Below, in pieces: positions 6,737-54,900 of a stretch of 64,000 nucleotides of DNA (position 1 is its first letter; the number at the start of each line of letters is the position of its first letter). The position numbers were made by a program, and so were the translations under genes. Below the pieces are notes generated by a model, which was not told where the DNA came from, searched no databases, and worked only from the letters and a program-made list of their open reading frames with translations. Origin of the DNA: an uncultured Pseudomonadota bacterium (GTDB lineage: Bacteria > Pseudomonadota > Alphaproteobacteria > RF32 > CAG-239); the NCBI GenBank assembly GCA_949295935.1, contig CASFMW010000003.1, positions 28,109 to 92,108 on the forward strand, read 5' to 3'.

Positions 6737-7808
6737 GTTTGGCGGCGGCATTAGCCGCGGCGGAAGAAACCTGCATCAATAAATAACTGACCATCTCCTC
6801 GACCGGCATAGCTGCATTACGAGTATCTCTTTCGCAGTTATAGAGCAATTCCAAAACACTAAAAACACGATCACGATTCCAAATGCTAAGCTGTTTTTTG
6901 AAACTAGATTCGCGGAAAAAAATAATCCTCGGCACCAGCTTTTTCACCGCTGTGTCAATCGTGTCACCCTTTTCCATAGACCCAAGACAAACCAAAATCT
7001 TCTGAAAATGATAAAATAAAGAACGCACCACTTGCGCCGGATCAATCCCTTCATTCAACAAACGTTGATAAGCTTGAAGCGTTTTATCTTTCAAACCACT
7101 GGCAGCAAAAAAACACACGTCATCGGTTGAAGAAGAAGCCGTATCACTAACCACCGCCCGCACATCTTCAGGCAAAACCGTTTTCTTATCTCCGAGATAA
7201 GTCACCAGTTTTTCCAGCTCGCCCAAATTGCTTTTTCTGTCATTAGAAAGACGCGCACATAAAAGCTGCAGCGCCTCATTTCCGATAGACACACCATTTT
7301 CACTCAAAAAGGTCCTGACTGTTGAAAAAACATCTTCATCGCGATCTTCATAACAAGCAATAACGCCGGCAAACTCAGCATCTTCGGCAAACTTCACCAA
7401 AGAAGACTTTTTATTCAAAGACGCCGAATAAATAATTAAAAGTGTGTCCGACTTTGCATCATCAAATAAAGACTTAAGAACTTTAGTCAGATTATTGTCG
7501 GCGTTTTTAATCACAACAACCCGACGTCCCCCCATCAGAGATTGAGCATTAAATTCGCCGATAAGCAAACCGGCATCAGCATTCACATCTTCTCCGTTAA
7601 GATACACCACCTGAAACGGATCATAAATATCGGGACTTATAGCCTTTGTCAGATTGCGCACATATTCTGACATCAAACCTTCGTTTGAGCCATAAACCAA
7701 CCAAAATTTAACGGAACTATCCGGCTTTTTCAAATAGCGGTCAATTTGCGGAGACTTAAATATCACTGGTTGACCCCTGCTTTGTAATAACTGAATGGAA
7801 ATAAGCAC
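6720..7808 (-). CDS. holA: DNA polymerase III delta subunit
   Basis: Position downstream of leuS-lptE and delta-subunit-like sequence (…VYGSNEGL…); annotated 5' end overlaps lptE by ~50 bp so true start may be an internal non-ATG codon. Confidence 0.8.
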   Translation of the reverse strand: MLISIQLLQSRGQPVIFKSPQIDRYLKKPDSSVKFWLVYGSNEGLMSEYVRNLTKAISPDIYDPFQVVYLNGEDVNADAGLLIGEFNAQSLMGGRRVVVIKNADNNLTKVLKSLFDDAKSDTLLIIYSASLNKKSSLVKFAEDAEFAGVIACYEDRDEDVFSTVRTFLSENGVSIGNEALQLLCARLSNDRKSNLGELEKLVTYLGDKKTVLPEDVRAVVSDTASSSTDDVCFFAASGLKDKTLQAYQRLLNEGIDPAQVVRSLFYHFQKILVCLGSMEKGDTIDTAVKKLVPRIIFFRESSFKKQLSIWNRDRVFSVLELLYNCERDTRNAAMPVEEMVSYLLMQVSSAAANAAAKLSRGY

Positions 7809-13670: not shown

Positions 13671-14717
13671 ATGGAAAAAAGCTTAATAGCAATCACAATC
13701 GCCATAATCCTGTGCTTTTTAGGAAGCTTTATCGGATTAAAACAAATCTCTGCCTACAATGGCAAAGGAACGTTTTGGCTTTTGTGGACCGCAATTTTTG
13801 CCGGCTGGATGAGCCTCTATTTTGCACTGCCGCCTCAAACCGATTTTATCTCAGCACTTTATATCTGGGAAATTCCATCTCTAGCTACCATCAGTGCCAT
13901 TCTTTACATTTTGCTCCAAAAATTTCCTAAGCTAAGTTTAATAATACTTTTTCTCGGTTCCGAAATTGCTAGTTTCACACTCCCTGCCAATGGCATGATA
14001 TTTAATGGAGAATTAGACTTTTGGGCTGACAGAAGCACACTCATCTTGCTCTGGACAATTTATGCTTATTGCTTCAGCTGGCTAAGCACCACCGACGGCA
14101 TAACCGGTGCACAAAGCCTCGGAACCCTGGCCGGCATCGGCATTCTCAGCCTAATTGGCGGAGCTCCTTTATTCATGGGCATCATGGCACTATGCGCTAT
14201 TAGCATTTTTAGTGCTTGGCAGTTATTTAACAACTACCCCGCAAAACTAAAATTATCAAAAGCAGATAGCTGGGCACTTGGTTTTATTTTAGCATGGTTT
14301 AACTTAAAAGCCGCCACTGAAGGCGCCGGCAGCTGCATACTCTGCTTCAACATGTTTTTTGCTTATCAAATAATCATCAGCCTCGGACGTTACTTCTTAA
14401 CAAGAGGCAGCAAAAATCAATTATCTCAAAACTCTGACTATTATTTAATCGGATTAAGCGGCTTGGCTCCTGCAGAAACAACTGCAGCCATCAGCAAACT
14501 CTTGTTGCTTTTAATCATATTGGGAGGATTTTCGGCTTTTGCTCCAAACGCATATTCATTGCCGATATTTGCACTCATGAGCTGCATCTGGTTTTTCCAT
14601 CGCCTCTGGCACTGGAAAGAAGCTATCCCGACATTAAAAGAAATTAATAGCACAGTAATAAATGACATTAAAACCAATGTCAGCAACATCGCCGACGGGC
14701 TAAAGACGAAAGACTAG
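13671..14717 (+). CDS. Polytopic membrane protein, degenerate MraY/WecA-like (glycosyltransferase family 4) features
   Basis: ~10 TM segments; ...LSTTDGITGAQSLGTLAG... resembles the N-x-x-DG-x-DGL loop; C-terminal HRLWH histidine cluster; other catalytic motifs poorly conserved. Confidence 0.45.
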   Translation: MEKSLIAITIAIILCFLGSFIGLKQISAYNGKGTFWLLWTAIFAGWMSLYFALPPQTDFISALYIWEIPSLATISAILYILLQKFPKLSLIILFLGSEIASFTLPANGMIFNGELDFWADRSTLILLWTIYAYCFSWLSTTDGITGAQSLGTLAGIGILSLIGGAPLFMGIMALCAISIFSAWQLFNNYPAKLKLSKADSWALGFILAWFNLKAATEGAGSCILCFNMFFAYQIIISLGRYFLTRGSKNQLSQNSDYYLIGLSGLAPAETTAAISKLLLLLIILGGFSAFAPNAYSLPIFALMSCIWFFHRLWHWKEAIPTLKEINSTVINDIKTNVSNIADGLKTKD

Positions 14718-14721
14718 ACCA

Positions 14722-16083
14722 ATGAACTTAGTGCAAAAGCTTTTTAGTCTTATATACCCCCAGCAAAAGGCTAAGGAAAAAACCTTAAACCTTTCAGACT
14801 ACAAACACATATATTTTTCTGTCGGTGTTATAGAATTTGCAGACAATGTAGAAAATGATTCAGGAAAAGTGCTGGCCCGTTTGCTCGGAGATGCCGACTA
14901 CTTCAAAAGTTTTTACTATGAGCATGACTATCCGCAAAATATATTATCACTGGAAAGCCGCACTATATTTGACCTGATAGACAGAGGACAATCTCTTCTT
15001 GACCGCACCAAAGCCGATGTCATCATCTGGGGCAAAAGAGAAGGCGATAAAATCAGACTCAATTTTCAAACCGGAAAACAGTATGAAACCGAGGATAAAT
15101 CCTTTGTCAGCTTGCTGGACAGCCTTTACATACCGGCCTCATTCTTAGAAAATCCGGCCTTATTTCCGCCAGCCATTCATAATTTGATAAACGGAGCCAT
15201 CCTCAGCGCCATCAGCCCTCTTGACGCACAACAAAGAATCTACCGCCGTTACCTTTTAAAAAGAACAATTTACAACCTGACAAAAGATGATTCGGCAAAA
15301 AACATGCCTGAAGAATATCTGCCTTATATATTAAACTTCTTAGGCATAATATATTTGAGTTACGCACACGAAGAAGAAGACGGCAGAAACTTCCGCACCA
15401 TAAACCAGCTTTTGAATGCCGCCCTAAAAAAACAAGATTTAATCAGCAATCCGATTCATCTGGGCTGCATATATTACCACTTTGGGCAACTATACGATTC
15501 GGCAGCACAATGCACAACACGCAACCCGATTAATTACTACCGCGGAGCAATCAGCTATTACCGCCAAGCACAAAAATATCTAAGCAAATACACTTATGCT
15601 TACGACTACGGCTACATATCTTACAAGTTATCAAATCTGTATTATAATTATTGGAAACAAAAAGAAGATTTACAGGCTTTAAGAGACGCTGTTTTTCACC
15701 TAAGAGAAGCCGAAAAAATATACACCTTTGCACTATTTCCAAATTTTTGGGCCGAGCTTCAAGGACAGTTAGGAAAAATGCTTGCTTTACTGGGAAGCAT
15801 AACCCACAGCACCGAGATTTCAGAAGTGGCAATTAACAGCTACCGCAACCAACAAAAGGTGGTTACCGAACGACGCAATCCGCTGGCTTGGGCGCATATC
15901 CAAGAAGCCATTGGCAACATTCATTATCAACTTGGGCAAAATGGCGGCGGCAATTCTCATTTTGAAGAAGCCATGGAATATTTTCACGACGCATTGTATA
16001 TTTATGAAAATATGGAACTCTCTGAAAATATCAGAAAAATCACTTCCAGCATTTCCCGCACCCAGCGCCTTCTGATAAAATAA
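14722..16083 (+). CDS. TPR-like repeat protein (453 aa), Tyr-rich helical repeats
   Basis: Repeated aromatic-rich alpha-helical hairpins (YYRGAISYYRQAQKYL..., NLYYNYWKQKEDLQALRDAV...); 5 bp after preceding gene. Confidence 0.55.
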   Translation: MNLVQKLFSLIYPQQKAKEKTLNLSDYKHIYFSVGVIEFADNVENDSGKVLARLLGDADYFKSFYYEHDYPQNILSLESRTIFDLIDRGQSLLDRTKADVIIWGKREGDKIRLNFQTGKQYETEDKSFVSLLDSLYIPASFLENPALFPPAIHNLINGAILSAISPLDAQQRIYRRYLLKRTIYNLTKDDSAKNMPEEYLPYILNFLGIIYLSYAHEEEDGRNFRTINQLLNAALKKQDLISNPIHLGCIYYHFGQLYDSAAQCTTRNPINYYRGAISYYRQAQKYLSKYTYAYDYGYISYKLSNLYYNYWKQKEDLQALRDAVFHLREAEKIYTFALFPNFWAELQGQLGKMLALLGSITHSTEISEVAINSYRNQQKVVTERRNPLAWAHIQEAIGNIHYQLGQNGGGNSHFEEAMEYFHDALYIYENMELSENIRKITSSISRTQRLLIK

Positions 16084-16126: not shown

Positions 16127-16912
16127 TTAAACCGAAACTTTCCCCTTAATCGCCGGATGATACTGATATCCTTCCAACGTAAAATCTTTAAGCGTAAAGC
16201 CGTCGATTTCACGAACAGCTGGATTCAAAACCATTTTGGGCAACGGATAAGGCTCACGAGAGAGTTGCTCTTTCACCTGCGCAAAGTGGTTTTTATAGAT
16301 ATGAGCATCACCCAAAACATGAATATACTCACCGGCTTCAAGCCCACAAACCTGTGCTAACATCATGGTCAGCAAGGCATAAGAGGCAATATTGAACGGC
16401 ACACCGAGAAACATATCACCGCTACGCTGATACATCATAAGTGACAGCTTTCCATCCTGCACATAGCATTGATACATCATGTGGCATGGCGGCAAAGCCA
16501 TTTCATCAAGTTGCGTCGGATTCCAAGCCGAAACAACAAGGCGGCGGCTATCCGGCGTATTTTTGATGTCATCAACCAGCTTTTTCAATTGGTCAATACC
16601 GAGATTATCCCAATTACGCCATTGCGCACCATAGATAGGCCCAAGGTCACCTTTTTCATCAGCCCATTCGTCCCAGATATGAACACCGTTATCATGCAGG
16701 AACTCTATATTCGTGTCCCCTTTAACAAACCACAAAAGCTCAGAAATAACACCCTTGAGAAACATTCGCTTCGTCGTCAGCAACGGAAATCCTTGCGATA
16801 AGTCAAACCTCATACTACGCCCAAAAACCGAGCGTGTTCCTGTACCTGTGCGGTCTTCTTTGTCATGACCGTTTTCAATAATGTCCTTAAGTAAATCAAG
16901 ATACTGTTTCAT
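16127..16912 (-). CDS. thyA: Thymidylate synthase
   Basis: [15 protein letters not shown]... and catalytic-Cys region (…[10 protein letters not shown]…); ATG at 16910-16912 (ORF-track extension to 16957 is upstream read-through from a TTG). Confidence 0.97.
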
Positions 16913-16967
16913 AAAAAATAATATTTTAGAATTAATAATAAAGTTAATTGAGCTCAATATATCCTAT

Positions 16968-16992
16968 TTTAGACAAAGGTCAACAAAAAAGC
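16968..16992 (-). promoter_or_regulatory. Conserved promoter-like element upstream of thyA (minus-strand reading TTTTTTGTTGACCTTTGTCTAAAA; -35 TTGACC, 16-bp spacer, -10 TATATT)
   Basis: Near-identical motif recurs at 25830, 34065, 40992 and, related, 18699. Confidence 0.5.
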
Positions 16993-17076
16993 ATATCAAA
17001 AAAGCGGTTGCAATCTCGATTGAATTCAGTTATAACCAAATCAATTTTTAAGATTTTGTTTTTAAGGAGTTTTTTA

Positions 17077-18189
17077 ATGGGTTTTAATTGCGGAATAGTC
17101 GGTTTGCCGAATGTCGGAAAATCAACGTTGTTTAACGCTTTAACACAAACGATTGCGGCACAGGCGGCAAATTTTCCGTTTTGCACGATTGAGCCGAACA
17201 CCGGCCGCGTCGCCGTTCCGGACGAAAGATTAAAACAGCTGACCGAGATTGTAAAACCACGGATGGTCACGCCGACACAGCTTGAATTTGTTGATATTGC
17301 CGGATTGGTAAAAGGCGCATCCAAAGGCGAAGGCTTAGGCAACCAGTTCTTGGCCAACATCCGCGAGGTTGACGCGATTATTCATGTTTTGCGTTGTTTT
17401 GAAGATGATAACATTACCCATGTCGAAGGCTCAGTCGACCCCATTCGCGATGCCGACATTGTCGAAACAGAATTAATGATTGCCGACTTAGAGTCTTTAG
17501 AAAAACGCTTTGAACAAACCAAGAAAAAAGCCCAAACCGGCGGCGATAAAGAGGCAAAAATCCGCGCACAGGTAATGGAACCGATTATCGAGGCTCTTCG
17601 TGCTGGCAAGCCGGCTCGTTCTGCTGCACCGGATAAATCGGATAAAGAAGCCTATAAACAATACGAAATGCTCCAGCTTCTGACCTCAAAACCGGTTTTA
17701 TATGTCTGCAACGTTGACGAAGCCTCTGCCGCTGAGGGCAATAATTTTTCAAAGCAAGTTGAAGAACGTGCGAAAAAAGAAGGAACCGAAGCGGTCATTA
17801 TTTCAGCCGAAATCGAATCAGAAGTCGCTCAACTTGATAATGAAGATGAGAAAAAAGAATTTTTGGACTCTTTAGGCTTGTCAGAAACCGGCTTAGCCAA
17901 AATTATCCGCGCCGGTTACAAGCTTTTAGGCTTGCAAACTTACTTCACTTGCGGCCCGAAGGAAGTCCGTGCATGGACCTTTATCAAAGGCTCAAAAGCC
18001 CCGCAATGCGCCGGAATCATCCACTCTGACTTTGAAAAAGGCTTCATCCGCGCCGAAACCATCGCCTTTGATGACTTCATCAAGTTCGGCGGAGAACAAG
18101 GCTGCAAAGAAGCCGGAAAAGTCCGTTCCGAAGGCAAAGAATATGTCGTCCAAGATGGTGATGTCTTGCTCTTCTTGTTTAATGTATAA
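17077..18189 (+). CDS. ychF: Ribosome-binding ATPase YchF (Obg-family GTPase)
   Basis: [24 protein letters not shown]1 motif; AAGGAG SD 7 nt upstream; ORF-track N-terminal extension (from 16948) is spurious. Confidence 0.95.
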
Positions 18190-18698: not shown

Positions 18699-18777
18699 TT
18701 TGACATTTTTGTCACAAAGTGCTACCTAAAAATCAGAGAATTATTATTTTAGTTATTAATCTATAAATCTTATTATC
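18699..18777 (+). promoter_or_regulatory. Promoter (TTGACA-N17-TACCTAAAAAT) plus conserved A/U-rich SD-less leader for the first of two tandem membrane paralogs
   Basis: ~57-bp block 18721-18777 ~93% identical to 19315-19372. Confidence 0.5.
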
Positions 18778-19257
18778 ATGAGTACGATAGAAATTTTATT
18801 ACTGGGCATCATGGCCGTCATTGCGATTAATTTTTTCTATGTTCTTTTCAAGAAGCCGTTTTGGAATCTTTTCAAACAAGCAGTATGGAACACATGGAAC
18901 GGATTGTGCCTTATTATTTTAGGCATACTGTTTGTAATTTATGCAATCAACACGGAAAGAATAAACGGATTCTTTTTGCTGGCCGTATTTGTCGCAACCT
19001 TCGTGAGCTATATCTCGACCAAAATGATAGAAAGAAAATTCTGCACAGTTATGTATGGAGAAACTCATTTTTTCCGCATTACATCTTTTGTCGGCAAAAA
19101 GATATACGGAGAATTAGCCATCACTGGCTCGGGTGAAACTGTTCCAGCACGATTGGTTTGTCCGCTTCACGCCGATTACAAGTATAATGACATCATACCG
19201 GTTGCGGTTTTGTTATGCAAACAAAATGAAATCATCGTCGAACCGACGGAAAATTAA
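18778..19257 (+). CDS. Hypothetical membrane protein, tandem paralog 1 (159 aa; N-terminal TM helices, C-terminal soluble domain)
   Basis: Shares NFFYVL(F/Y)K.PFWN, HFF(R/K)I...G(K/R)I(Y/F)GEL and C-terminal VEP motifs with the ORF at 19373-19849. Confidence 0.65.
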   Translation: MSTIEILLLGIMAVIAINFFYVLFKKPFWNLFKQAVWNTWNGLCLIILGILFVIYAINTERINGFFLLAVFVATFVSYISTKMIERKFCTVMYGETHFFRITSFVGKKIYGELAITGSGETVPARLVCPLHADYKYNDIIPVAVLLCKQNEIIVEPTEN

Positions 19258-19261
19258 ACCT

Positions 19262-19291
19262 CAAGGAGAGCTTTAAGCTCTCCTTTTTTTG
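19262..19291 (+). terminator. Rho-independent terminator after paralog 1 (GGAGAGCT-tta-AGCTCTCC + T7)
   Basis: Perfect stem and T-run. Confidence 0.75.
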
Positions 19292-19372
19292 TTTGACTTT
19301 TTAAGCATAAAATGCTTACCTAAAAATCAGAGAATTATTATTTTAGTTATTAATTTATAAAATCTTATTTTT
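19291..19372 (+). promoter_or_regulatory. Promoter (TTGACT-N18-TACCTAAAAAT) plus conserved leader of tandem paralog 2
   Basis: Duplicate of 18699-18777 element. Confidence 0.5.
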
Positions 19373-19849
19373 ATGGAAACGCTTAAAATTTTTTTATGTA
19401 TTGTCATTTTCATAAACATGACAAATTTTTTTTATGTGTTATATAAAGCTCCTTTCTGGAACTTTGATAAACAATTTTTATGGAAATTATGGGTTTTATT
19501 CTGTTGCTCTGCATTAATTGTATTAGCCTTAATTTGTTATTTTCATAACATTAATAACAAATGGATTATAACAACAATATTGTTAGCTCTCGGAATGGAT
19601 TTAAACTCCATCCCCCTTGTGCTGTCAGATTTTAATAAAGTGATAAAAGAAAGACCTCACTTTTTTAAAATAGAGAGAATAGAAAACGGACGAATTTTCG
19701 GTGAACTTTTTATAGCCGAAAAGGACGACACATTCCCTGCTGAGATGATAAACGTTCCACAAGGAAAATACAAAATCGGAAATAAAATAACAGTAAACGT
19801 CGTTATCTGTACAATTGAAAAAATAAAAGTTGAGCCTCAAACAACTTAA
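19373..19849 (+). CDS. Hypothetical membrane protein, tandem paralog 2 (158 aa)
   Basis: Paralog of 18778-19257 (roughly 30% identity, same architecture). Confidence 0.65.
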   Translation: METLKIFLCIVIFINMTNFFYVLYKAPFWNFDKQFLWKLWVLFCCSALIVLALICYFHNINNKWIITTILLALGMDLNSIPLVLSDFNKVIKERPHFFKIERIENGRIFGELFIAEKDDTFPAEMINVPQGKYKIGNKITVNVVICTIEKIKVEPQTT

Positions 19850-19852
19850 TCC

Positions 19853-19882
19853 AAAGAAGGAAGCTACGGCTTCCTTTTTTTA
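19853..19882 (+). terminator. Rho-independent terminator after paralog 2 (GGAAGC-tacg-GCTTCC + T-run)
   Basis: Stem-loop followed by TTTTTTT. Confidence 0.75.
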
Positions 19883-20012
19883 TGAGAAATCAGCCATTTT
19901 TGCAAAAAAGTTCTTGCATTTTAAACAAATAAGAGGTAAACAGAACTTGCTTTAGAACACCCCTGGAGGTTTTAAGGCATAAAATTTGTTTTTATAATAA
20001 AGGAATTTTAAA

Positions 20013-20303
20013 ATGGCTGATTTAATTTTTAATGCTAAAAAGCGTGAAACAGCAGGTAAGGGGGCAGCTCGCGCATGTCGTCGTGAGGGCCGTATTCCTG
20101 CCGTAATTTATGGTGGAAAAGAAGCTCCGGTCATGATTAGTCTTGACCCTGTTCAAGTTGAAAAAGCTTTGGATATGGCTGGCTTATACAGCTTTGACAT
20201 TGACGTTAACGTTGACGGCAAAAACTATGCCGTTAAATGTCAGGATGTTCAATTCCATCCGGTTAGCGACAAAGCTATTCACGTCGATTTTCTCAGAAAG
20301 TAA
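20013..20303 (+). CDS. rplY: 50S ribosomal protein L25, short (N-terminal-domain-only, 96 aa) form
   Basis: …RIPAVIYG… L25/Ctc N-domain; stop directly after ...HVDFLRK; no room for the Ctc C-terminal domain before the terminator. Confidence 0.85.
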   Translation: MADLIFNAKKRETAGKGAARACRREGRIPAVIYGGKEAPVMISLDPVQVEKALDMAGLYSFDIDVNVDGKNYAVKCQDVQFHPVSDKAIHVDFLRK

Positions 20304-20371
20304 GTCTCTTCATCGTGAAAGTCGTCCACTATGCTTCTCTCGGATGGGCTTTGCGATGATGAATTGCTCAT

Positions 20372-20401
20372 AGAACGGGAGTTTAGCTCCCGTTTTTTTT
20401 G
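20372..20401 (+). terminator. Rho-independent terminator after rplY (AACGGGAG-ttta-GCTCCCGTT + T8)
   Basis: Stem-loop plus long T-run. Confidence 0.7.
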
Positions 20402-21192: not shown

Positions 21193-21334
21193 CTAATCGA
21201 CCATTATACAAACTTTTCTACAACTTAAAACTGGGGATAATAGTACAGATAGAGGCATTTCTAGCTGCGAGAAAAATTTTAGTGGGTACATGAATTTTCC
21301 GAGACAGCGTAAAATGCCTCTAGATGTGCTGTTA
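21193..21334 (+). repeat. Intergenic repeat copy A (~142 bp) containing 11-bp inverted repeat TAGAGGCATTT...AAATGCCTCTA; candidate small RNA / REP-like element
   Basis: ~97% identical to 34865-34994 apart from an 11-bp indel. Confidence 0.7.
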
Positions 21335-21347
21335 TACACAGTTTTTT

Positions 21348-23465
21348 TTATTCGAGGTCTTCCCCAGTCTCCTGATTAACTCTCTTTGCAGAAAGCTTAA
21401 CCTTGCCACGATTGTCCGTACCAAGACATTTTACCCAAATTGAGTCGCCTTCTTTGTAGAAGTCGGAAACAGAAGCAATGCGCTCGTTCTTGACTTCGGA
21501 AATGTGAACCAAACCTTCGGTTGTTCCGAGGAAGCGAACAAAAGCACCAAAATCCATAATCTTGGTAATAACACCATGATAGATTTTGCCTTCTTCCGGC
21601 TCGGCAACAATACCGGTAATCCATTCAAGAGCAGCATCACCGTCTTCTTTCTTAAGCGAAGCAATTTTGATAACACCATCGTCGCTGATATCAATTTTAC
21701 AATGTGTTTTTTCGGTAATTTCACGAATAACTTTACCGCCTGAACCAATAACTTCACGAATTTTATCAACCGGAATCTTAATCGCAACAATACGCGGTGC
21801 TTTATCCGAAACATGAGGACGCGGTTCAGAAATAGCCTTTGCCATCTCACCCAAGATATGGATACGACCTTCGTGAGCCTGAGCCAAAGCAGTTTTCATA
21901 ATATCTTTGGTGATTGATGTGATTTTAATATCCATCTGCAAAGCGGTAACACCGTCTTTTGTACCGGCAACCTTGAAATCCATATCGCCGAGGTGGTCTT
22001 CATCACCGAGAATATCGGTCAAAACGGCCACACGACCATCTTCTTCCTTAATCAAGCCCATAGCAATACCGGCAACTGGTTTAGCCATTGGCACACCGGC
22101 CGACATCAAAGACATTGTTGTTCCACAAACCGTCGCCATTGACGAAGACCCGTTTGATTCCAAGATTTCGGAAACAACACGAACAGCATAAGGAAATGTA
22201 TCTTTATTTTTCGGCATCATCGGGTGAATAGCGCGCCAAGCCAATTTTCCGTGACCGATTTCACGACGTCCGGGGCTACCGATACGACCACATTCACCAA
22301 CCGAGAACGGCGGAAAGTTATAGTTCAGCATAAAGTCTTCTTTATATTCTTCCATCAAACCGTCAACAATTTGAGCATCTTCGCCCGTACCCAAAGTTGT
22401 AACAACCAAAGCCTGTGTTTCGCCACGAGTAAAGATAGCTGAACCATGGGCCATCGGCAAAACATCAACTTCGCACCAAATCGGACGAACGGTTTTGGTG
22501 TCACGACCGTCAATACGTTTTCCGGTTGTCAAAACTTTTTCGCGAACAACTTTGTGCATCAATTTTTCAATAGCGTCTTGAGCAAACTTTTGTTCAAACT
22601 CATTTTCCGGATCAAGGGTTGCCTTAAATTCTTCAGAAGCCTGAGCAACAAGTTCGCCACGTTTCAGTTTATCGGTTTCTTTGAAAGCTTCTTCAAACTT
22701 AGAGATAAAGCCTTTTTCCAGTTTGTTATAGAGTTCATCAAACTCCGGCGGGAATTTCGGCATTTCCCAACGCGGCTTGCCGGCTTCTTTAACCATTTCA
22801 TTAATCATGGCAATAACCGGCTGGAAGTTTTCAAATCCGAACATAACCGCGCCAAGCATGGTTTCTTCAGACAATTCCTGAGCCTCAGATTCAACCATCA
22901 GCACGCCTTCAGATGTACCGGCCACTGCCAGCTCAAGTTCAGATTCTTTTTGTTGTTCTACTGTCGGGTTCAAGATATATTCACCGTTTTTATAACCGAT
23001 TTTAGCAGCACCGATAGGTCCGAGGAACGGAATACCGGAAATTGCCAAAGCGGCTGAAGCGGCAATCATAGCCACAACATCAGAATCTGTCTGCTGGTCA
23101 TGAGAAAGAACGGTACAAATAACCTGAACTTCATTTTTAAAAGCATCCGGAAACAGCGGACGAATAGGTCTGTCAATCAAGCGAGAGATAAGAACTTCGC
23201 GCTCAGAAGGCTTACCTTCACGCTTCATAAATCCACCGGGGATTTTTCCGGTAGCATAATATTTTTCTTGATAATTAACGGTCAAAGGGAAGAAATCCTG
23301 ATCGGGCGCAGCCTCTTTTGCGGCACAAACGGTAGCCAAAACCGCCGTTCCGCCATAAGTAGCCTCAACGGCACCGAGAGCCTGCTTCGCAACTTTACCT
23401 GTTTCCAACACCAACTTTCTGCCGCCCCAATCCAGTTCTTTGCGGCAAATATTCAATTCGACCAT
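21348..23465 (-). CDS. pnp: Polyribonucleotide nucleotidyltransferase (PNPase)
   Basis: 705 aa; two RNase PH domains, KH and S1 domains; follows rpsO. Confidence 0.97.
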
Positions 23466-24981: not shown

Positions 24982-25785
24982 TTAAAGAGCTGACTTCAAC
25001 TGACACAACCTAGATAGCACATAGGCTGTATCTTTCACAATTTCACCAAAGCTTCGAGGTGCTGTCAAATACAAATAATCAGTATTATCAACCCCATAAG
25101 CCAAAGTCATCGGCTTTTTCAAACTCAGCAATTCTTTACAGCGCTTGAGCAGGCTTGGCAACACAATCGGCTTTTTATAATAGACATCTTTATGACGATT
25201 ACGATCAAGCAACATTCCTTTACCATGTCGCACCACCAAGAGCAAATCAGCAAATGTTCGTTCAAGTATGCCTTGTCGGTTATCATACCAAACATCAAAA
25301 CTCTTAAAATCCATTTCCGCACAAACAATCTGCTTAGGATTATATTCATTACGAAAAACGGAAAAATAAGTTTTTTGCTTAAGACCGATATTTGTATCAA
25401 AAAATGAAAAACAGTTACCATCGACATACAGCGAACCTTTTTCAACCAACGCCCCCAAGCGTTTTATTTGACAATCAGCGCCAATAGCATAATAACAATC
25501 GCCATTATAAGCTTTCATCTGCCTACCATTTTGATATTCACCACTGCATTTTCCTGAAGGATAAAGCAAATATCCGCTTTTTACGCTAATGGAACGCACA
25601 TGAGAAACCAATACCTCCAATGCCGGAAAACTAAGAATCATACTCATCTTTGTTTCTGTGCAGTGAAGCACGGCTAGATTACGAAAAGTCCAAAATTCAC
25701 CTTTTTCAACATGTGTCTCAATACCGCCGATTTCTCTTGAAGTCACTTTCAGAACAGCTGTTCCGTTTTGAATAAATTTTTCCAT
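24982..25785 (-). CDS. Hypothetical protein (267 aa), Cys/Tyr-rich, no recognisable domain; inserted between rbfA and truB
   Basis: ORF preceded by the conserved TTGACTTTTGTCTA promoter motif; shares an F-D/S-x-x-(Y/W)-W motif with the 144/179/180-aa paralogs. Confidence 0.55.
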   Translation of the reverse strand: MEKFIQNGTAVLKVTSREIGGIETHVEKGEFWTFRNLAVLHCTETKMSMILSFPALEVLVSHVRSISVKSGYLLYPSGKCSGEYQNGRQMKAYNGDCYYAIGADCQIKRLGALVEKGSLYVDGNCFSFFDTNIGLKQKTYFSVFRNEYNPKQIVCAEMDFKSFDVWYDNRQGILERTFADLLLVVRHGKGMLLDRNRHKDVYYKKPIVLPSLLKRCKELLSLKKPMTLAYGVDNTDYLYLTAPRSFGEIVKDTAYVLSRLCQLKSAL

Positions 25786-25829
25786 AATATATAATCTTTA
25801 ATAATAAATTCTCGAACTTTAAGAATACA

Positions 25830-25852
25830 CCATTTTAGACAAAAGTCAAGCG
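25830..25852 (-). promoter_or_regulatory. Conserved promoter-like element (minus strand CGCTTGACTTTTGTCTAAAAT) upstream of the 267-aa ORF
   Basis: Motif family; -35 TTGACT, ~16-bp spacer, TATTCT. Confidence 0.5.
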
Positions 25853-25912
25853 TTTTACACAAAAAAAATACACTGTCACAATTGCGAACAGTGTATTTAA
25901 ATTCAAAAACGA

Positions 25913-26827
25913 CTAAAATTCGAGCATTAGAGATTCTGTCTTTTTAAACAATTTATTTCCAATTTTAAGGTGTTTACTAGGAATGCACTCTAAAAAGCCA
26001 CCAGAAGCCAAAACCACCTTTCGGTTCTGATTATCAAACCCCAACAATGTAAATGGCGTTGAAGAATCAGATAAGACAACCGTGTTCATCCATAAAGAAT
26101 AAAAGTCTTTTTCTTTGTTTAACAATAAAAAAGAGGCAGATTTTTCATCCCAACCATACAATCGATTATTAGATTTAAGAAAACAATGTCGGCGTGGTTT
26201 ATAAAGACGACCAACAGGTGTCAATACATCAAACCTGCCATCCAATCGCTCTCCTACAACAAATTTTCCTTGATGTCCCCAAAAATCAATTATTTCATAA
26301 TTCTTCCAAACAGTTTCACGCACCACATTTTTATTAAAATAACGAACAGTCATCGTCCCATCTGAAAAAGGAGTAATAAAAACATTGTTTTCATCTAATT
26401 TCTTTTTTCCTAACAAGACTTCATCTTCGCCACAATACCAAGATTTTTTTCCCTTTCGATATATAAAAATATAAGGAGAAAAACTAAAATCTTTTACACT
26501 GCATGAAAGTTTCACAAAAGAACATCTTTTAGAACAATAACGATAAAGAACATAAAGACCATCGAGTTTACTAAAAACTAATAAATCTCCCTCATGAAAA
26601 GAAAAGCTTCCTTTAAGTCCCTCATTATAACAAACATACTTTCTTTCCTGTTCCGAATACAGATAAGCAGCCTTCAAATCACCAATAAACGTTTGCATTC
26701 CAAATTTTGAACGAACAAAAAACTTCGTCTCGGTTAATACAAAAGATTTCATAATTATAAAGATTAAAATTAAACATAAAAATAAATTAAAGTAACCAAG
26801 AGATAGCACAAGTTTTTCATTTGTCAA
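25913..26827 (-). CDS. Hypothetical membrane-anchored protein (304 aa; single N-terminal TM helix, Tyr/Lys-rich beta-rich ectodomain)
   Basis: ORF; hydrophobic segment LVLSLGYFNLFLCLILIFII; located inside the infB-rbfA-truB-rpsO-pnp gene string. Confidence 0.55.
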   Translation of the reverse strand: MTNEKLVLSLGYFNLFLCLILIFIIMKSFVLTETKFFVRSKFGMQTFIGDLKAAYLYSEQERKYVCYNEGLKGSFSFHEGDLLVFSKLDGLYVLYRYCSKRCSFVKLSCSVKDFSFSPYIFIYRKGKKSWYCGEDEVLLGKKKLDENNVFITPFSDGTMTVRYFNKNVVRETVWKNYEIIDFWGHQGKFVVGERLDGRFDVLTPVGRLYKPRRHCFLKSNNRLYGWDEKSASFLLLNKEKDFYSLWMNTVVLSDSSTPFTLLGFDNQNRKVVLASGGFLECIPSKHLKIGNKLFKKTESLMLEF

Positions 26828-30239: not shown

Positions 30240-31772
30240 TCATTTTTTATAATGCGGCATCATACGGCGGTATGACAAAGCTTCAGCTACGTGCATTTTA
30301 AGCACTTTTTCATTATTTTGCAAGTCTGCAATTGTCCTTGCTAACCGCAAAATGCGATGATAAGCTCTGGCCGAAATTTTATTTTTATCGGCATAATTGA
30401 TAAGAAGCTTCTGAGCCTCATCATCTAATACAACAGCATTATCCAGTGCTTTTCCTTTCAAATCAGCATTTGTATGACAACCCTTAAGGCCCAAAGCTTT
30501 AAAACGATCGCTCTGAATTTTTCTTGCCACCAAAACACGTTCACGAATTTGGGCCGAGGTTTCTCCGGCCTTAACCGAAGAAAGCTCCCACGGAGAAACA
30601 GCATGCATTTCTATTTGAATATCAATACGATCAAGTAAAGGACCTGAAATTTTAGATTGATATTCTGCAGCACAAAGCGGCGCCCTCGGACATTCAAATT
30701 CCGGCGTTCCGAGGTGTCCGCAACGACAAGGATTCATCGCAGCAATAAGCTGCACTTTTGCCGGATAAGTCGTATGAGCATTAACGCGAGATATGGTAAT
30801 TTTACCGTTTTCCAAGGGTTGACGCAACGCTTCCAAAGTTGCGCGATTAAACTCCGGCAACTCATCAAGAAACAAAACACCATTGTGAGCCAAAGAAATT
30901 TCACCCGGTTCGGCACGACGTCCGCCGCCAACCAAAGCTGGCGTCGACGCATTGTGGTGCGGCGCACGAAACGGACGAGAAAAACATAACATACCGCCCT
31001 TAAGCTCACCGGCAATCGAATGAATAATACTGGTTTCAAGAGCCTCTTCTGGTGTTAGCGGCGGCAAAATCCCCGGCAACCTGGCGGCCAACATAGACTT
31101 ACCAGACCCCGGAGGCCCAATCATAAGCATATTATGCCCACCGGCTGCGGCAATCTCAAGAGCACGCTTAGCACTTTCTTGACCTTTAACATCTGCCATA
31201 TCAGGATAAATATTATTTTCAGGCATTTGCTGTTTAATCGGCTGAGGAATCAACTGTGTCCCTTTGAAATGATTGATAAGCTCAAGCAAATTATGAGGCG
31301 CCAAAATCTCTTTAATACCAGACCAAGCAGCTTCTGAACCTTGCTCTGCCGGACAAACCAACCCTTTGTTAAGACGATTAGCATGAATAGCCGCCGGAAG
31401 AATACCGTTTACCGGCAAGATAGAAGCATCAAGCCCAAGCTCACCAAGCACGATATAGTTATCTACTTCCTCCAGAGGAATAATCCCCAGACAAGAGATA
31501 ATACCAAGCGCCACTGGCAAATCATAATGAGAACCTTCTTTGAGCAAATCTGCCGGCGCAAGATTAATTGTCACTCTCTTTGCCGGAAAACTTATTCCTA
31601 TAGAATTAAGCGCTGCTCGCACACGTTCGCGACTTTCGGCCACAGCCTTATCCGGCAACCCGACAATAGAAAAAGCAGGCATTCCCGAAGAAATCTGAAC
31701 CTGCAAATCCACATCTTGAGTATCCAAGCCATTAAAAGCAAGAGTGTTAACGCGGCTAAGCATGCCTACCAC
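30240..31772 (-). CDS. comM: YifB/ComM family Mg-chelatase-like AAA+ ATPase
   Basis: 510 aa; N-terminal Lon-protease-like domain, Walker A GPPGSGKS, ChlI-type AAA+ core, C-terminal domain. Confidence 0.93.
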   Translation of the reverse strand: MVGMLSRVNTLAFNGLDTQDVDLQVQISSGMPAFSIVGLPDKAVAESRERVRAALNSIGISFPAKRVTINLAPADLLKEGSHYDLPVALGIISCLGIIPLEEVDNYIVLGELGLDASILPVNGILPAAIHANRLNKGLVCPAEQGSEAAWSGIKEILAPHNLLELINHFKGTQLIPQPIKQQMPENNIYPDMADVKGQESAKRALEIAAAGGHNMLMIGPPGSGKSMLAARLPGILPPLTPEEALETSIIHSIAGELKGGMLCFSRPFRAPHHNASTPALVGGGRRAEPGEISLAHNGVLFLDELPEFNRATLEALRQPLENGKITISRVNAHTTYPAKVQLIAAMNPCRCGHLGTPEFECPRAPLCAAEYQSKISGPLLDRIDIQIEMHAVSPWELSSVKAGETSAQIRERVLVARKIQSDRFKALGLKGCHTNADLKGKALDNAVVLDDEAQKLLINYADKNKISARAYHRILRLARTIADLQNNEKVLKMHVAEALSYRRMMPHYKK

Positions 31773-32107
31773 CGCGGCGTACGCTCACCGTCACGCCAAC
31801 GGCGAGTAGGATAAGTTCCGCGATGCAAAAAGTCATAGCTTGCGGTTTTATAAGGGATATCCCTATAGCGAACATATCCTTTTCTTTCAAAAATCAAAGC
31901 ACATTCTTCAGAACTGGTTGTCGGCGTTGAATAGCAATGGACAATATATTTGCTCATCGGATTAAGCAGGCTGATTTTGGTCGGCGTATTAACAAAACAA
32001 GGAGGCGCCGCCACATAATTAACCTTTCCTTCCTCGGGAAATTCCCAAAGAGAAGAACATGCGCTCAAAATAAAAAGCAACGGAGCGATAAGAAAAATCC
32101 TGAACAT
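31766..32107 (-). CDS. Small lipoprotein (lipobox LFILSACSS), C-terminus overlapping comM start by 7 bp
   Basis: ORF with lipobox after MFRIFLIAPL; Arg-rich C-terminal tail. Confidence 0.45.
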   Translation of the reverse strand: MFRIFLIAPLLFILSACSSLWEFPEEGKVNYVAAPPCFVNTPTKISLLNPMSKYIVHCYSTPTTSSEECALIFERKGYVRYRDIPYKTASYDFLHRGTYPTRRWRDGERTPRW

Positions 32108-32193
32108 AACACCAATTCCAAAGATAATTTCAAATAATAGCAACCATAGCATTTAATAATTAAAATATCCTAAATCTTTTTGAAAAATTTTTC

Positions 32194-33427: not shown

Positions 33428-33467
33428 CAAAAAAGCTCTGAGTAGTGAAACTCAGAGCTTTTTTTAA
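33428..33467. terminator. Bidirectional terminator between rplI (+) and the 180-aa paralog (-): AGCTCTGAG-tagtgaa-CTCAGAGCT flanked by A/T runs
   Basis: Perfect 9-bp stem. Confidence 0.75.
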
Positions 33468-34006
33468 TCTAAAGAAGCAACCGGACAGGCAAAATAAGTA
33501 TTGAGTTTTCCACCAGCAATAAGACTATCAGGACTATCCAAAAAATAAACAATTCCAGCAGCCCCTCCATTTCCATACTCACTATCTGTCCACAAAATAT
33601 CATGAGGACAAATCGGCTCAAAGCCCATTCTTATTCGCTGAATATTAATCTGCGTTAAACGAGGACAAACTTCTACCAGCCAAAAATGCCTATCCCCGCG
33701 AGAACATTTATTGCCAAGAATAGTTTGTTTTTCACAATACTTTCCTGCTTCAAACCAATCTAAATGATTAGTTGAATGCTCAATAAATACAGCTTTTCCA
33801 GCAATAATTATTGCTTTAGGATGTACCCCTTTCAAAGGAAACCAAGAACGTTTATCATTTTCATAAACAACTTCAAAAGAAAAGCGTTCTTTAGGACCTC
33901 CTTTCTGAACAAAATACCCTCCAAAATAACGAGCAATTTCTGCCGGAAGAATTTTATTCTCTTTCATAAGAGTTACCACTTGTTCTATAACTTCTTTTTT
34001 TTCCAT
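33464..34006 (-). CDS. Paralog-family protein 1 (180 aa) of a three-member small-protein family; possible SUKH/Smi1-Knr4-like fold (speculative)
   Basis: Shares with 34123-34662 and 40491-40925 the core ...(V/L)(V/L)Y(K/E)N..(K)RS..PL.GV.P.AI..GK... and YC(E/Q)KQ...G...FW and F(D/S)xx(Y/W)W blocks. Confidence 0.7.
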   Translation of the reverse strand: MEKKEVIEQVVTLMKENKILPAEIARYFGGYFVQKGGPKERFSFEVVYENDKRSWFPLKGVHPKAIIIAGKAVFIEHSTNHLDWFEAGKYCEKQTILGNKCSRGDRHFWLVEVCPRLTQINIQRIRMGFEPICPHDILWTDSEYGNGGAAGIVYFLDSPDSLIAGGKLNTYFACPVASLD

Positions 34007-34064
34007 ATAATATAATTATTAAATTGACATCATAATAAAAAAACAAAATAAGGCTACATTAAGT

Positions 34065-34088
34065 ATAGACAAAAGTCAACAAAAAAAG
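34065..34088 (-). promoter_or_regulatory. Conserved promoter-like element (minus strand TTTTTTTGTTGACTTTTGTCTATA) upstream of the 180-aa paralog, abutting the upstream gene's terminator
   Basis: Motif family. Confidence 0.5.
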
Positions 34089-34118
34089 GTTTTATCCTTT
34101 AAGATAAAACCTTTTTTG
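34081..34118 (-). terminator. Rho-independent terminator of the 179-aa paralog gene (AGGTTTTATCCTT / AAGATAAAACCT + T-run)
   Basis: Inverted repeat with flanking A/T runs. Confidence 0.7.
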
Positions 34119-34122
34119 AAAA

Positions 34123-34662
34123 TCACGGCATCAATAACATCGGTCGAACACTAAAATTTTGAGATTTAGAAGCAATTTTCTCCACTCCTTTCTTAAAACA
34201 AGAACAGGAACATCCATACCTAGAAGAATAAATCCAATAAGCAGAAGAAAAATCAATTTTTTGCCCACCAAGAATTTCTATCTCCTGATTAATGTTATCA
34301 GCATTCTTAAACAAGAAATCCCAAATCTTACGAGTACCCATATTGGCCGAATAACCATAAAATTTAATTTGAGCAGCTCCATCTAAAGCTTCTGCAAAAG
34401 AAAGCCTTTGTGGCAAATCCCAAAGCGAAACAAAACAACGTTCCACAAAAATAGCAATTGGAATCTCGCCCAAAACTTTACAATCATAAACGTGCCCTGA
34501 CTTATACAAAACCTTAAAAGGCAAAGGCTCAGAAACAACACTCACTTCTGTATCAGCAACAAATTTCCCGCCCCATCGTTTGCATAAATCATCAATTGAA
34601 ATACCTTTTCTCAACATCTCACTAAAAAGGTAATCTACCGCTTCACTTTTACTTAGTTCCAT
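34123..34662 (-). CDS. Paralog-family protein 2 (179 aa)
   Basis: Homologous to 33464-34006 (N-terminal ...RWGGKFV... vs ...RYFGGYFV...; core PLPFKVLYKSG...GEIPIAIFVER) and to 40491-40925. Confidence 0.7.
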   Translation of the reverse strand: MELSKSEAVDYLFSEMLRKGISIDDLCKRWGGKFVADTEVSVVSEPLPFKVLYKSGHVYDCKVLGEIPIAIFVERCFVSLWDLPQRLSFAEALDGAAQIKFYGYSANMGTRKIWDFLFKNADNINQEIEILGGQKIDFSSAYWIYSSRYGCSCSCFKKGVEKIASKSQNFSVRPMLLMP

Positions 34663-34864: not shown

Positions 34865-34994
34865 TAATCGACCATTATACAAACTTAAAACTGGGGATAA
34901 TAGTACAGATAGAGGCATTTCTAGCTGCGAGAAAAATTTTAGTGAGTACATGAATTTTTCGAGACAGCGTAAAATGCCTCTAGATGTGCTGTTA
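34865..34994 (+). repeat. Intergenic repeat copy B (~130 bp), near-identical to 21193-21334, embedded in a 450-bp intergenic region with additional mosaic sub-repeats
   Basis: Direct sequence comparison; flanking sub-repeat GAGtCGAATAATAAGAaTTTAGGG...AGCGTACA.A..AGTACGTGA occurs at 34775 and 35011, with a related copy at 21055. Confidence 0.7.
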
Positions 34995-40490: not shown

Positions 40491-40925
40491 TCATGGTAAA
40501 TATATAACCGGTCGCACTTTAAATAATGGATTATCATCCAGAGCACAGCTCCGTACCTGCCATTTCCCACTGATACCAAAACCATAAAGCTTATCTTTTT
40601 GCTCATACCAATAAGGAGCATCAAAAACAATAGGCTTAAAACCAGCCAGCTCAGCCGTTTTATTAAAATCATTAAACTGATCTGAAAAACAAATCAACGA
40701 CTTCCAAAAATCCTTTTTTCCAAGAGAAATCCGATAAGTTTTAAATTTTTGTTTTTGACAATAGTTCTGTGCCGACGATAAAAGCATTTTTTTAGGCGCT
40801 TCATCTAAAATAGCAAACTTTCCAAAAACAATAGCCAAAGGTTCAACACCTTCTAACGGAACAAGCGAACGTTTTCCATTTTTATAAAGAACCGGCAACG
40901 GAAATTGAATATTGTTATTATCCAT
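40491..40925 (-). CDS. Paralog-family protein 3 (144 aa), lacks the N-terminal segment of the other two
   Basis: PLPVLYKNGKRSLVPLEGVEPLAIVFGKF..., YCQKQKFKTYRISLGKKDFW, FDAPYWYEQ blocks shared with 180/179-aa proteins. Confidence 0.7.
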   Translation of the reverse strand: MDNNNIQFPLPVLYKNGKRSLVPLEGVEPLAIVFGKFAILDEAPKKMLLSSAQNYCQKQKFKTYRISLGKKDFWKSLICFSDQFNDFNKTAELAGFKPIVFDAPYWYEQKDKLYGFGISGKWQVRSCALDDNPLFKVRPVIYLP

Positions 40926-51972: not shown

Positions 51973-54900
51973 TTAATCAAGCGGCATTAAAAAAGCAGTA
52001 TCCGTCCACAAAATAAAGCAATGCACGGCCTTTTCCGGATAAATTTTTTCAACCAACTGTTTATAAGCTGCCAATTGCTTCTTATAAATCTGCGGAACAT
52101 CATCAACCGTTTTGGCTGCCGGACGATTTGTTTTGAAATCAATAATCAAAACCTCATCATCTCGCACCACAAGACGGTCAATTTGTGCCGAAACAATCTT
52201 TCCTTCAACCTGCCCCATCAGCGGCACTTCCGCTTTTGAACCAACGCCAAAAACTTTTTCAAAAGCCGGATTTTCCAACAAATGCAAAACCTCATGCAAA
52301 ATAATTTCATGCTGTTTTGTTGGCAGATCCGCAGCATTAGCACTCAAAAAGTCCAAAATAACGGAACGCAAATCTCCCTGCTTAACATCTGGCAAAAATT
52401 GTAATAGCTTATGAATAACTCGCCCGCGACGAAAACGATGTTCATCTTCTTTAAAAATAGGGGAAACCAAGGCCGATTCTGAAAGCTCATCTTCTTCATC
52501 AGGACGCGACGGCGTATAAGGCTTTGCTAACAAATCCTCTTCGGGAGCAGGTTCAAGAAACCACTCGGGAACTTCTAAACTTTTATTTCCGGCCACATCG
52601 ACTTTTTGCTTCTTTTTCTCATCCTGCTCAACAAACTCTTGCTCTGTTTCCACAAACAAGCAACCATCATCATCTTCCTTAGCATTTTCATCAAAGTTGC
52701 GCCGACAAACATCATACCAACAGTCTTCCTTAATGGCGTTTTTATTCTTATATCCGCAAACACAAAGCCTGTCTTCAGCGCGTGTCAAAGCCACATAGAG
52801 CAAACGGCGATATTCTTCCAAGGCTTTTTGATTCTGCCTTTGATTAATTTTAAGACAAATATCATCATAATCTGCTGACTTAAGCGGAAAGTACATCAGC
52901 TCGTCCCACAACATCGCTGCTTCTTTCTTTTCCGAAGCAACACGTACCGTATCCGGCAAAATCACGATTGGCGCCTGCAAACCTTTAGAACCATGCACCG
53001 TCATCAAGCGAACAAGATTTTGCGAGGCTTGCTCTTGCTCACGCTTAATTTCAACCTCGTCCTGCGTAATCCAATCAATAAAAGATTGCAAACTCGGCAC
53101 ATGGTCCTGTTCAAAAGCAACAGTCAGATTCATAAATTCATCAATACCATCTTCAACCTCTTTTCCCATCCGAGCCACAAACTTTTTTCGCCCCGAAAGT
53201 TTGTTCAGAATAAAAGAATAAAGTTCAAACGGACGAACATAATCCACCTTGTTCAAAAGCTGCTGCAGCTCTGCATACACTGCAGCAAATTTTTCGCTTT
53301 TAGAAAGCCTTGTCAGCAAAGGAGCACCTTCGCGCTTATAACAAAGCTCAAACAAATCCATATCATCAAGTCCCCACAAAGGTGACTTCAAGATTTCGGC
53401 AAGTGTCAAATCATCAGTCGGCAACAGCAAAAACTTTCCGATTCCGATTAGGTCTTGAATTGCCATCTGCTCCAAGAGCTTAATTTTATCAACACCAGCG
53501 ACTTCCACCCCAATTTTCTTGCAGGCTCTGACAAATTCTTCCACAAAAGCATTACGACGTTGAACCAAAACCAAAAAATCACCATATCTGACCGGCCGAT
53601 TCTTAGATTTAAGGATTTCGCCTTTTTCAACCATAGACTTAATCTTTTTGGCAATATCCTCAGCCAAGCGCGAGCTGGTTGAAGCCGCACTTGTTTTTTC
53701 AATCGGAGGCAACCATTCATCCGGATTATCATCAGGCAAAGGCTCAACAAGCGGCCAAAGCTCAACTTTTCCGGCATCTCCCACACGAAAGGGCACATGC
53801 GTAATATCTTGCTCCGGCAAAACCACGCCTTTTTTAGCTGTTTCATCACCAAAAACAGTGTTTACAGTATCTAGAACCGCCGCGGTTGAACGAAAAGAAA
53901 CATCAAGCTTAACTTCCTCAAAGTTGTCTGAAACCTCATGAAAATAGCGCCGCATATTTTCAAATTCTTCCGGATCAGCCCCCTGAAAACTATAAATGGA
54001 TTGCTTGCGGTCACCAACGGCAAACACCGTCCGAATAATATCATCAGCCCCTATTCCGGCAAAAAACTCTTCCGTCAAAGCCTTAACAATTGCCCATTGG
54101 TCAGGAGATGTATCTTGCGCCTCATCAATCAAAACACTGTCTATACCACCATCAAGCTTATACATCACCCATTGCGCAACAGCCTGATTCTCCAACAAAT
54201 GCCGTGTCAGAACAATAAGGTCTTCATAGTCCATCTTTGAATGCAGAGCCTTATAAGCATTATAACCTCTAATAAGCTCTTCTGACAAAAGCAACACCGC
54301 TTTTGTTGACGTAAACACCCGCAAAGACACCAACTTGTTCTTCATATCAAGAACGTGGTGAGCCTCTTCCTTTATCAACGAATCAACCTCAGGATCAAAT
54401 GCTTTAGCGTCTTTTGTAGCAAGCTTCGTTTTTTCTTCTTGTGTTACAAAACAAGCGACATAATCTTTAAAAGAAACGCTTGCATCGCCTTCCCAAAATT
54501 TTGCAATCACCAAAGCGCGATCAACATCTGTTTTTGAGCCATGCTGAAGAACTAAAATAATTCTTTTCACATCCACCAGACGCCCTTTGTTCAAAAACGA
54601 GGCTATCAAAGTTTCTTCCGTATCATCAGGAGAAATACCGAACTTCTGCGCCAAAGCTGCAAGAATCTCCTGCATAGAATGATATGTCGAAAGAAAGCGC
54701 ACCAATTTGTTTCGATTTTCGGCAATCGCCTTAAATACTTTAGGAAATCTCGATTCGCTGATATTTTGTGTTAAGTAAACAATTGCTTTTGCCGCTTCAC
54801 TATCAGGAGATTGTTCAATTTTTTGCAATAAGTGAGTCTTCACATCATCAAGAGCTTCAGCCGCCATACGGTCATCCATCACCGAAAAATATGGCGAAAC

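Follow-up and report, generated by a model that had tools for sequence, protein, structure and literature searches.

The question raised by this locus was how two neighboring genes can lie behind nearly identical upstream leaders when the proteins that they encode are only about one-third identical. The locus lies in a 64,000-nt stretch of DNA from an uncultured alphaproteobacterium, referred to here as the window, and coordinates are those of the window unless a comparison locus (L followed by a number) is named. Gene A (18778-19257, plus strand) encodes 159 amino acids, and gene B (19373-19849, plus strand), which is paralogous to A and shares its domain layout, encodes 158; the layout is three transmembrane helices followed by a C-terminal beta barrel resembling an OB-fold. 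The order of the locus is trmL (a SpoU-family methylase gene, ending at 18676), A, B, and rplY at 20013. A sequence-only reading of the window had described transmembrane helices with a C-terminal domain, a protein identity of ~30%, a leader identity of ~93%, a TTGAC(A/T)-N17/18 promoter, and a separate terminator for each gene, and all of these points were borne out by the measurements given below. It had also proposed selection on a cis-regulatory element. This remains the best explanation, as three blocks are invariant in 16 distinct leaders and leader similarity shows no excess within genomes. The view taken here, held with about as much confidence as doubt, is that the leader is a selected cis-acting expression signal for two old membrane-protein paralogs.

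The two proteins share 52 of 159 residues (33% identity; BLASTP, E 1e-26), and their coding DNA differs at 80% of synonymous and 44% of non-synonymous sites. In contrast, the leaders are 93% identical from the -10 element to the ATG, which makes them the most similar pair seen; BLAST within the window gave 96% over 53 nt (E 1e-18), and another alignment gave 98% over 45 nt. Sliding-window comparison between strains revealed islands of 82-100% identity at the terminator, promoter, and leader, while the coding stretches between them dropped to 40-60%. In the spacer between the -35 and -10 elements of gene B, which adjoins the leader, identity falls to 74%.

A promoter-like site lies ahead of each gene and a terminator behind it. 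The gene A site was read from the letters at 18700..18728 (plus strand) and includes TTGACA (18700-18705), TGC (18720-18722), and TACCTA (18723-18728), with 17 nt between the hexamers; an alternative reading is TTGAC-N17-CTACCT. The gene B site at 19293..19322 (plus strand) includes TTGACT (19293-19298), TGC (19313-19315), and TACCTA (19317-19322), with a spacing of 18 nt. In both sites a TG lies exactly 14 nt past the -35 hexamer, and the -35 element and the TAC of the -10 element are conserved across 16 distinct copies, a pattern that suggests promoter function for both. A consensus sigma-70 scan flagged neither site because the -10 hexamer is weak. The gene B spacer is unlike that of gene A, yet it is position-specific across strains. 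The intrinsic terminator of gene A (19263..19292, plus strand) has a 10-bp G+C-rich stem followed by a U-tract (-15.2 kcal/mol, z -3.9), and that of gene B (19857..19883, plus strand) has the hairpin GGAAGC-uacg-GCUUCC followed by a U-tract (-16.1 kcal/mol, z -4.5). The presence of a strong terminator after each gene was counted in favor of independent transcription units. If transcription starts near A18735, the 5' untranslated leader of gene A would extend over 18735..18777 (plus strand; 14% G+C), and its counterpart in gene B, AU-rich and of the 43-44 nt class, over 19329..19372 (plus strand). An in-frame stop lies 21 nt 5' of the gene A ATG and the indels between leader copies are non-triplet, which together indicate that the leader is non-coding.

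The leaders might be alike merely for want of time, had the unit been duplicated recently with one copy now decaying, and a recent duplication of the whole unit under relaxed coding constraint was the outcome that the sequence-only reading had set against its own proposal. The 93% identity of the window pair, higher than in any other pair seen, and the dispensability of B in some strains would be consistent with such a history. However, synonymous sites between A and B are saturated (pS 0.80), distinct A-type and B-type orthologs are present in every related lineage, and tandem pairs occur in distant genera too. Both genes are also intact in every strain that carries them, and their dN/dS values of 0.06-0.38 are well below 1, which indicates that both are functional. 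The duplication is old, and a recent one with decay was rejected as refuted by the saturated sites, the intact genes under purifying selection, and the old tandem pairs; its chance of being correct is considered negligible.

Conservation of the leader was assessed in 24 copies (16 distinct) that represent both paralogs in at least five strain lineages among related strains. Within the leader core (18735-18760 and 19329-19354), 20 of 26 positions are invariant in the 24 copies, and these form discrete blocks in the arrangement AGAG-N3-TATTATTTT-N3-TATTAAT with variable positions between them. In leader A the blocks occupy 18735-18738, 18742-18750, and 18754-18760, and in leader B they occupy 19329-19332, 19336-19344, and 19348-19354, respectively (plus strand). 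Among the most divergent A alleles (L008 and L015), the leader is ~68% identical outside the blocks, so the constraint spans about 20 nt and not all 57. That all of the leaders cluster around one consensus reads as a signature of purifying selection.

A different explanation is that recombination, and not function, keeps the leaders alike, either by gene conversion between copies or by exchange between strains, with the shared segment serving as a crossover point for the swapping of divergent A and B alleles. The allele classes of A and B do reassort (L002 and L015), in L014 the two positions have exchanged the C/T and indel states seen near TATTAAT in the window, identity profiles change sharply at the leaders, and metagenome contigs often end there. 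Mean leader identity between A and B, however, was 82.2% within genomes (six) and 81.8% between genomes. This equality is better explained by purifying selection than by gene conversion, and no signal of concerted evolution, that is, no within-genome excess of leader similarity, was found in the six genomes. The invariant positions also fall in blocks instead of one uniformly identical tract, features of the leader persist in distant genera whose two leaders are unlike, and the one rearrangement that was mapped, a deletion of B and a further gene C in L006 and L013, shows microhomology and no recombination site. Recombination as the cause of the likeness is thus judged unlikely. An integron-like or site-specific cassette array was also considered and rejected: the leader has no stable inverted repeat, the ORFs scanned included no integrase or recombinase, and the junction consists of microhomology only.

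No third copy of the leader was found in the 64 kb, where a leader profile matched the two sites (E 1e-10) and the next match had an E of 1.9. A scan of 185,579 species-representative genomes for the leader core identified only two contigs, both from uncultured Alphaproteobacteria MAGs, with flanking DNA identities to the window of 95-96% for one and 88% for the other. The full leader is unique to the A and B genes in the window and the species representatives scanned. The leaders of distant family members (~20-25% protein identity) are likewise AT-rich and without a Shine-Dalgarno motif, and they have GAATTATTAATCT or TTATTTTTATG in common with the window leaders.

This uniqueness, together with the discrete blocks separated by variable positions, would suit a site for a specific trans-acting regulator that co-regulates A and B, as opposed to a general translation signal. 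Candidates for such a regulator are a repressor or activator that binds the DNA between +1 and +26, and an sRNA or RNA-binding protein that targets the 5' UTR. The blocks also include two similar hexamers, TATTAT and TATTAA, at a distance of 12 bp, which would fit binding by a dimer. Against it, none of the lineages has a regulator gene linked to the locus, the short motif also occurs upstream of unrelated genes such as thyA, and neither an RNA structure nor a match to a known RNA family was found. A dedicated regulator is considered possible but somewhat improbable, and it and the favored explanation are not exclusive. The invariant blocks taken by themselves could equally be a DNA operator over +1 to +26.

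The RNA of both leaders appeared to be unstructured, with minimum free energies of -1.8 kcal/mol (z +1.0) for leader A and -1.3 kcal/mol (z +1.1) for leader B, both weaker than those of shuffled sequences. A search of the whole window against Rfam 15 gave no match at gathering score, and no match at E <= 10 was obtained on the plus strand over the leaders; a weak minus-strand match to sraA at 19253-19348 (29.2 bits against a gathering score of 56) reaches into the beginning of leader B. For known cis-regulatory RNAs (riboswitches, ribosomal-protein leaders, and thermometers), there was neither a covariance-model match nor a stable conserved structure. Neither gene has a Shine-Dalgarno motif within 25 nt of its start codon. 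The sequence-only reading was correct in describing the leader as A/U-rich and without this motif, but about half of the genes in the window also lack one, so the feature is not special. The motif TATTATTWW occurs 12 times in the window against 5.2 expected, and six of the 12 occurrences, including one at thyA, are sense-oriented and no more than 40 nt ahead of a start codon.

AU-rich leaders that work independently of a Shine-Dalgarno sequence are known as S1-dependent translation enhancers in E. coli, and mRNAs without such a sequence are abundant in Caulobacter. The A and B leaders are similar to these in being unstructured, about 86% A+U, without a Shine-Dalgarno sequence, and directly abutting the start codon. 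They differ in that a specific sequence of ~26 nt, and not composition alone, is conserved among paralogs and strains. As a separate observation on the window, genes without a Pfam domain (13671-16083, 24982-26752, 31766-32152, 33464-34662, 40491-40925, and others) are scattered among translation and housekeeping genes. Most of them have very AT-rich upstream regions without a Shine-Dalgarno sequence, while most of the recognizable housekeeping genes have GGAG-type sites.

An AlphaFold2 model of the gene A protein, built from a 10-sequence alignment, had a pLDDT of 87 and included three long helices (residues 3-24, 31-58, and 64-94) followed by a five-strand beta domain (97-156). By the positive-inside rule, the N-terminus would be outside and the barrel cytoplasmic. 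Foldseek searches with this model matched only OB-folds (TRAM, S1, IF1, and the NfeD domain of YuaF), all with E > 1e-3; among the PDB matches, the YuaF domain 2k14 shared 22% identity and scored below the S1, TRAM, and IF1 OB-folds. The best match among predicted viral structures was a protein with an NfeD-like C-terminal domain, aligned over 130 columns and the whole length (E 1.8e-3).

Most NfeD homologs are 140-150 aa long, and in them three hydrophobic stretches at the N-terminus precede a soluble C-terminal domain of all-beta structure (PMC2636767). In size and layout, A and B resemble the short proteins of this type (YbbJ, YuaF, YqiJ, and PH0471; Pfam PF01957). However, with a cutoff as loose as E <= 1, the Pfam NfeD family (PF01957) still matched neither A and B nor any of nine distant members, and a profile search of PDB sequences retrieved no NfeD chain. 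An SPFH/Band_7 partner of the stomatin, flotillin, or YbbK type was not adjacent in any lineage and was not found among 55 window ORFs, the set covered by the domain scan, which left out 21348-23465 (pnp), 51973-55356, 55372-58263, and 60084-62132. Also unlike NfeD genes, A and B lie upstream of rplY-pth as tandem paralogs without an SPFH gene. Given the lack of both a profile match and an SPFH partner, the layout is NfeD-like and membership in the family is not demonstrable.

Relatives of the two proteins are few. For each of A and B, a search of 5.8 billion protein sequences yielded only four relatives, and among 1.84 billion cluster representatives an exhaustive profile search recovered 13 clusters. 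All relatives are metagenomic, and none has a name or a Pfam domain. Members of the family were always found directly upstream of rplY-pth, usually as a tandem pair, and the neighbors in all lineages were trmL, rplY, pth, ychF, or pnp. The tandem pair was observed again in distant genera (~20-25% protein identity, 45-49% G+C), where the upstream neighbor differs and rplY-pth is retained downstream; in one distant lineage, a third gene of 100 aa is added to the pair. A and B represent a new, small, lineage-restricted, and unannotated family with a known type of architecture, and their conserved leader is likewise new to annotation. The stable pairing is compatible with A and B acting together.

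Two observations concern a distant lineage whose strains are ~99% identical. Its second family gene differs by an in-frame deletion of 15 codons (L071 2443-2910 compared with L023 6654-7166), which falls inside a predicted transmembrane helix. In its first family gene, 5-8 amino acid changes were found against 1-4 synonymous changes (dN/dS 0.6-1.45, from small counts).

From the same genus-level group as the window, 20 related loci were recovered, and the setting from trmL to rplY is retained in all of them. Many of the comparison contigs are short metagenome assemblies that may be chimeric at the repeated leader, where several of them end. Gene content varied from A alone to A and B, as in the window, and to A, B, and C. 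Amino acid identities to the window ranged from 45% to 96% among A alleles (dN/dS 0.11-0.38) and from 62% to 91% among B alleles (dN/dS 0.06-0.25). Coding regions differ by 33-55% in amino acids between strains with 96-100% identical flanking proteins. In comparisons of the window with other strains, the flanking proteins had a dN/dS of 0.01-0.04 and a dS of 0.2-0.6. For matching strain pairs, dN was 0.19-0.49 in A and B and 0.006-0.021 in their neighbors, and protein evolution is roughly 10 to 80 times faster in the pair. Gene-wide positive selection was not found by the pairwise Nei-Gojobori method, which gave gene-wide ratios from few alleles. The transmembrane part was the most variable portion. 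Allele classes are reassorted between strains: the window shares A with L002 (96%) but not B (63%), while it shares B with L015 (91%) but not A (45%).

Gene C encodes a 113-aa membrane protein unrelated to A and B. It stands directly after B without a promoter or leader of its own (L008 3436-3777, L015 2233-2574, and L017 4130-4471), and in some contigs it is split into pieces of 48 and 58 aa by a frameshift in an A-run. It is missing from the window after 19849, where a different terminator stands in its place. In L005, L006, and L013 (MAG CALXTD01; 95-96% flanking DNA identity, conspecific), both B and C are absent. The deletion begins inside the second leader, and its ends share only GAAT/AGAAT microhomology; at the junction AAAATC|GAAGAAT, leader 2 continues into the 3' part of gene C with its terminator, and the second promoter is left. 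The arrangement resembles the outcome of a deletion at microhomology, with an orphan promoter remaining.

Other variants were observed at and near the pair. At the start of B in L003 (1060-1100), an 18-nt tandem duplication (ATGGAAAACCTTATTTTTATGGAA) results in a 165-aa product. The same locus has a third copy of the promoter and leader past the B terminator at the contig end (1577-1697), which may be a genuine third unit or may result from the assembly looping through the repeat. The rplY gene and its upstream region (window 19906-20400) are 96-100% identical to L008, L017, L013, and L002, while ychF and trmL of strains with near-identical rplY differ by 7-9% (dS 0.4-0.6). Either a recent recombinational sweep or exceptionally strong constraint beside the variable genes may be responsible, and it follows that short islands of identity can also come from recent recombination. 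A second variable spot lies 1-2 kb from A and B, where an extra gene of 179 aa between thyA and ychF in L001 (1601-2140) and L006 (1318-1857) is missing from the window (16912-17077).

The variation among strains bears on whether A and B are immunity or exclusion proteins, an analogy drawn in the sequence-only reading. Under this explanation, diversifying selection, for example by membrane-acting toxins or phage, would produce a variable array behind constant expression signals. It would account for the 45-67% identity beside nearly unchanged flanking proteins, a copy number from one to possibly three, the reassortment of alleles, the concentration of variability in the transmembrane part, and the short-range dN/dS near 1 in one distant lineage (0.6-1.45, from very few changes). 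In contrast, the 55 window ORFs and the related loci yielded no toxin, phage, or recombinase gene and none for a secretion system, and Pfam identified only housekeeping or unknown genes among those ORFs. No significant PADLOC, PHROG, or NCBIfam match was obtained, the gene-wide dN/dS is below 1, and the model predicts periplasm-exposed parts of only a few residues. The pair also keeps its place upstream of rplY-pth at ~20-25% protein identity, and such an old and positionally stable pair speaks against a mobile immunity island. Beyond its high variability, nothing at the locus favors the analogy, which found no support, and an immunity or exclusion role is regarded as quite improbable.

The vsp and vlp families of Mycoplasma are variable surface-protein gene families with conserved 5' regions. 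The A and B locus is similar to them in its divergent coding regions behind near-identical upstream sequences and in a copy number that varies among strains. It differs in that the ORFs scanned included no recombinase, inverted repeats and phase-variable tracts are absent, and the genes are co-oriented, each with a complete promoter. In addition, the proteins are predicted to be in the inner membrane with a cytoplasmic domain and are not surface lipoproteins.

In the favored explanation, in which the leader is a selected expression signal, A and B would be old inner-membrane paralogs in which three transmembrane helices are followed by an OB-fold barrel, probably in the cytoplasm, and each would form its own transcription unit of promoter, leader, and intrinsic terminator. 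The promoter would be of the alphaproteobacterial housekeeping type (TTGAC-N17-CTACCT with a TG just upstream), and transcription would start near the invariant AGAG. The unstructured leader of ~43 nt would be held near constant by purifying selection, most likely as an open AU-rich region for ribosome landing and translation start, and it may also bind a shared regulator. Either role would place both paralogs under one control and lead to matched amounts of the two proteins. Meanwhile, the coding regions would evolve fast under weak purifying selection, with recombination redistributing alleles among strains.

If the leader is a sequence-specific start signal independent of a Shine-Dalgarno sequence, it would be a compact example of how translation is specified in Alphaproteobacteria that are poor in such sequences, and it would show how paralogs stay at matched expression. 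A very small family with an NfeD-like architecture and no SPFH partner could also widen the view of membrane-anchored OB-fold proteins, and the conserved flanks around divergent, reassorting alleles mark a locus that varies within a species of an uncultured lineage. These points are of interest to specialists in translation initiation and membrane OB-fold proteins; they are modest and overturn nothing. A broader idea, which we consider quite improbable, is that the locus with A, B, and in some strains C is a strain-specificity module of gut-type uncultured Alphaproteobacteria, in which ancient, divergent alleles of membrane-anchored OB-fold proteins under balancing selection are exchanged as cassettes and the leader is both expression signal and crossover anchor. 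Such a module could, for example, serve in self/non-self discrimination or in resistance to a membrane-acting agent. More speculatively, the S1/TRAM-like OB domain might bind its own AU-rich leader and autoregulate translation at the membrane.

Two further elements were observed in the window. In the 5' UTR of rplY (~19948-19985; L021 ~1790-1830 and L023 ~7575-7610), CACCCCTGGAGG is invariant in three distant lineages, and flanking arms that differ in sequence between lineages can be paired by eye. This may be a leader hairpin of the ribosomal protein L25; automatic folding of the consensus gave a poor result (-3.2 kcal/mol), and Rfam provided no match. The other element is a direct repeat of 113 nt at 21222-21334 and 34882-34994, with an identity of 98%. 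A copy is also present in a related MAG, and the repeat has no Rfam match. It contains the inverted repeat gaggcatt...aatgcctc, and weaker similarity continues for ~200 nt on the upstream side of each copy. Of the two, one separates pth from the 3' end of pnp, and the other is upstream of a gene encoding 179 aa (34123-34662).
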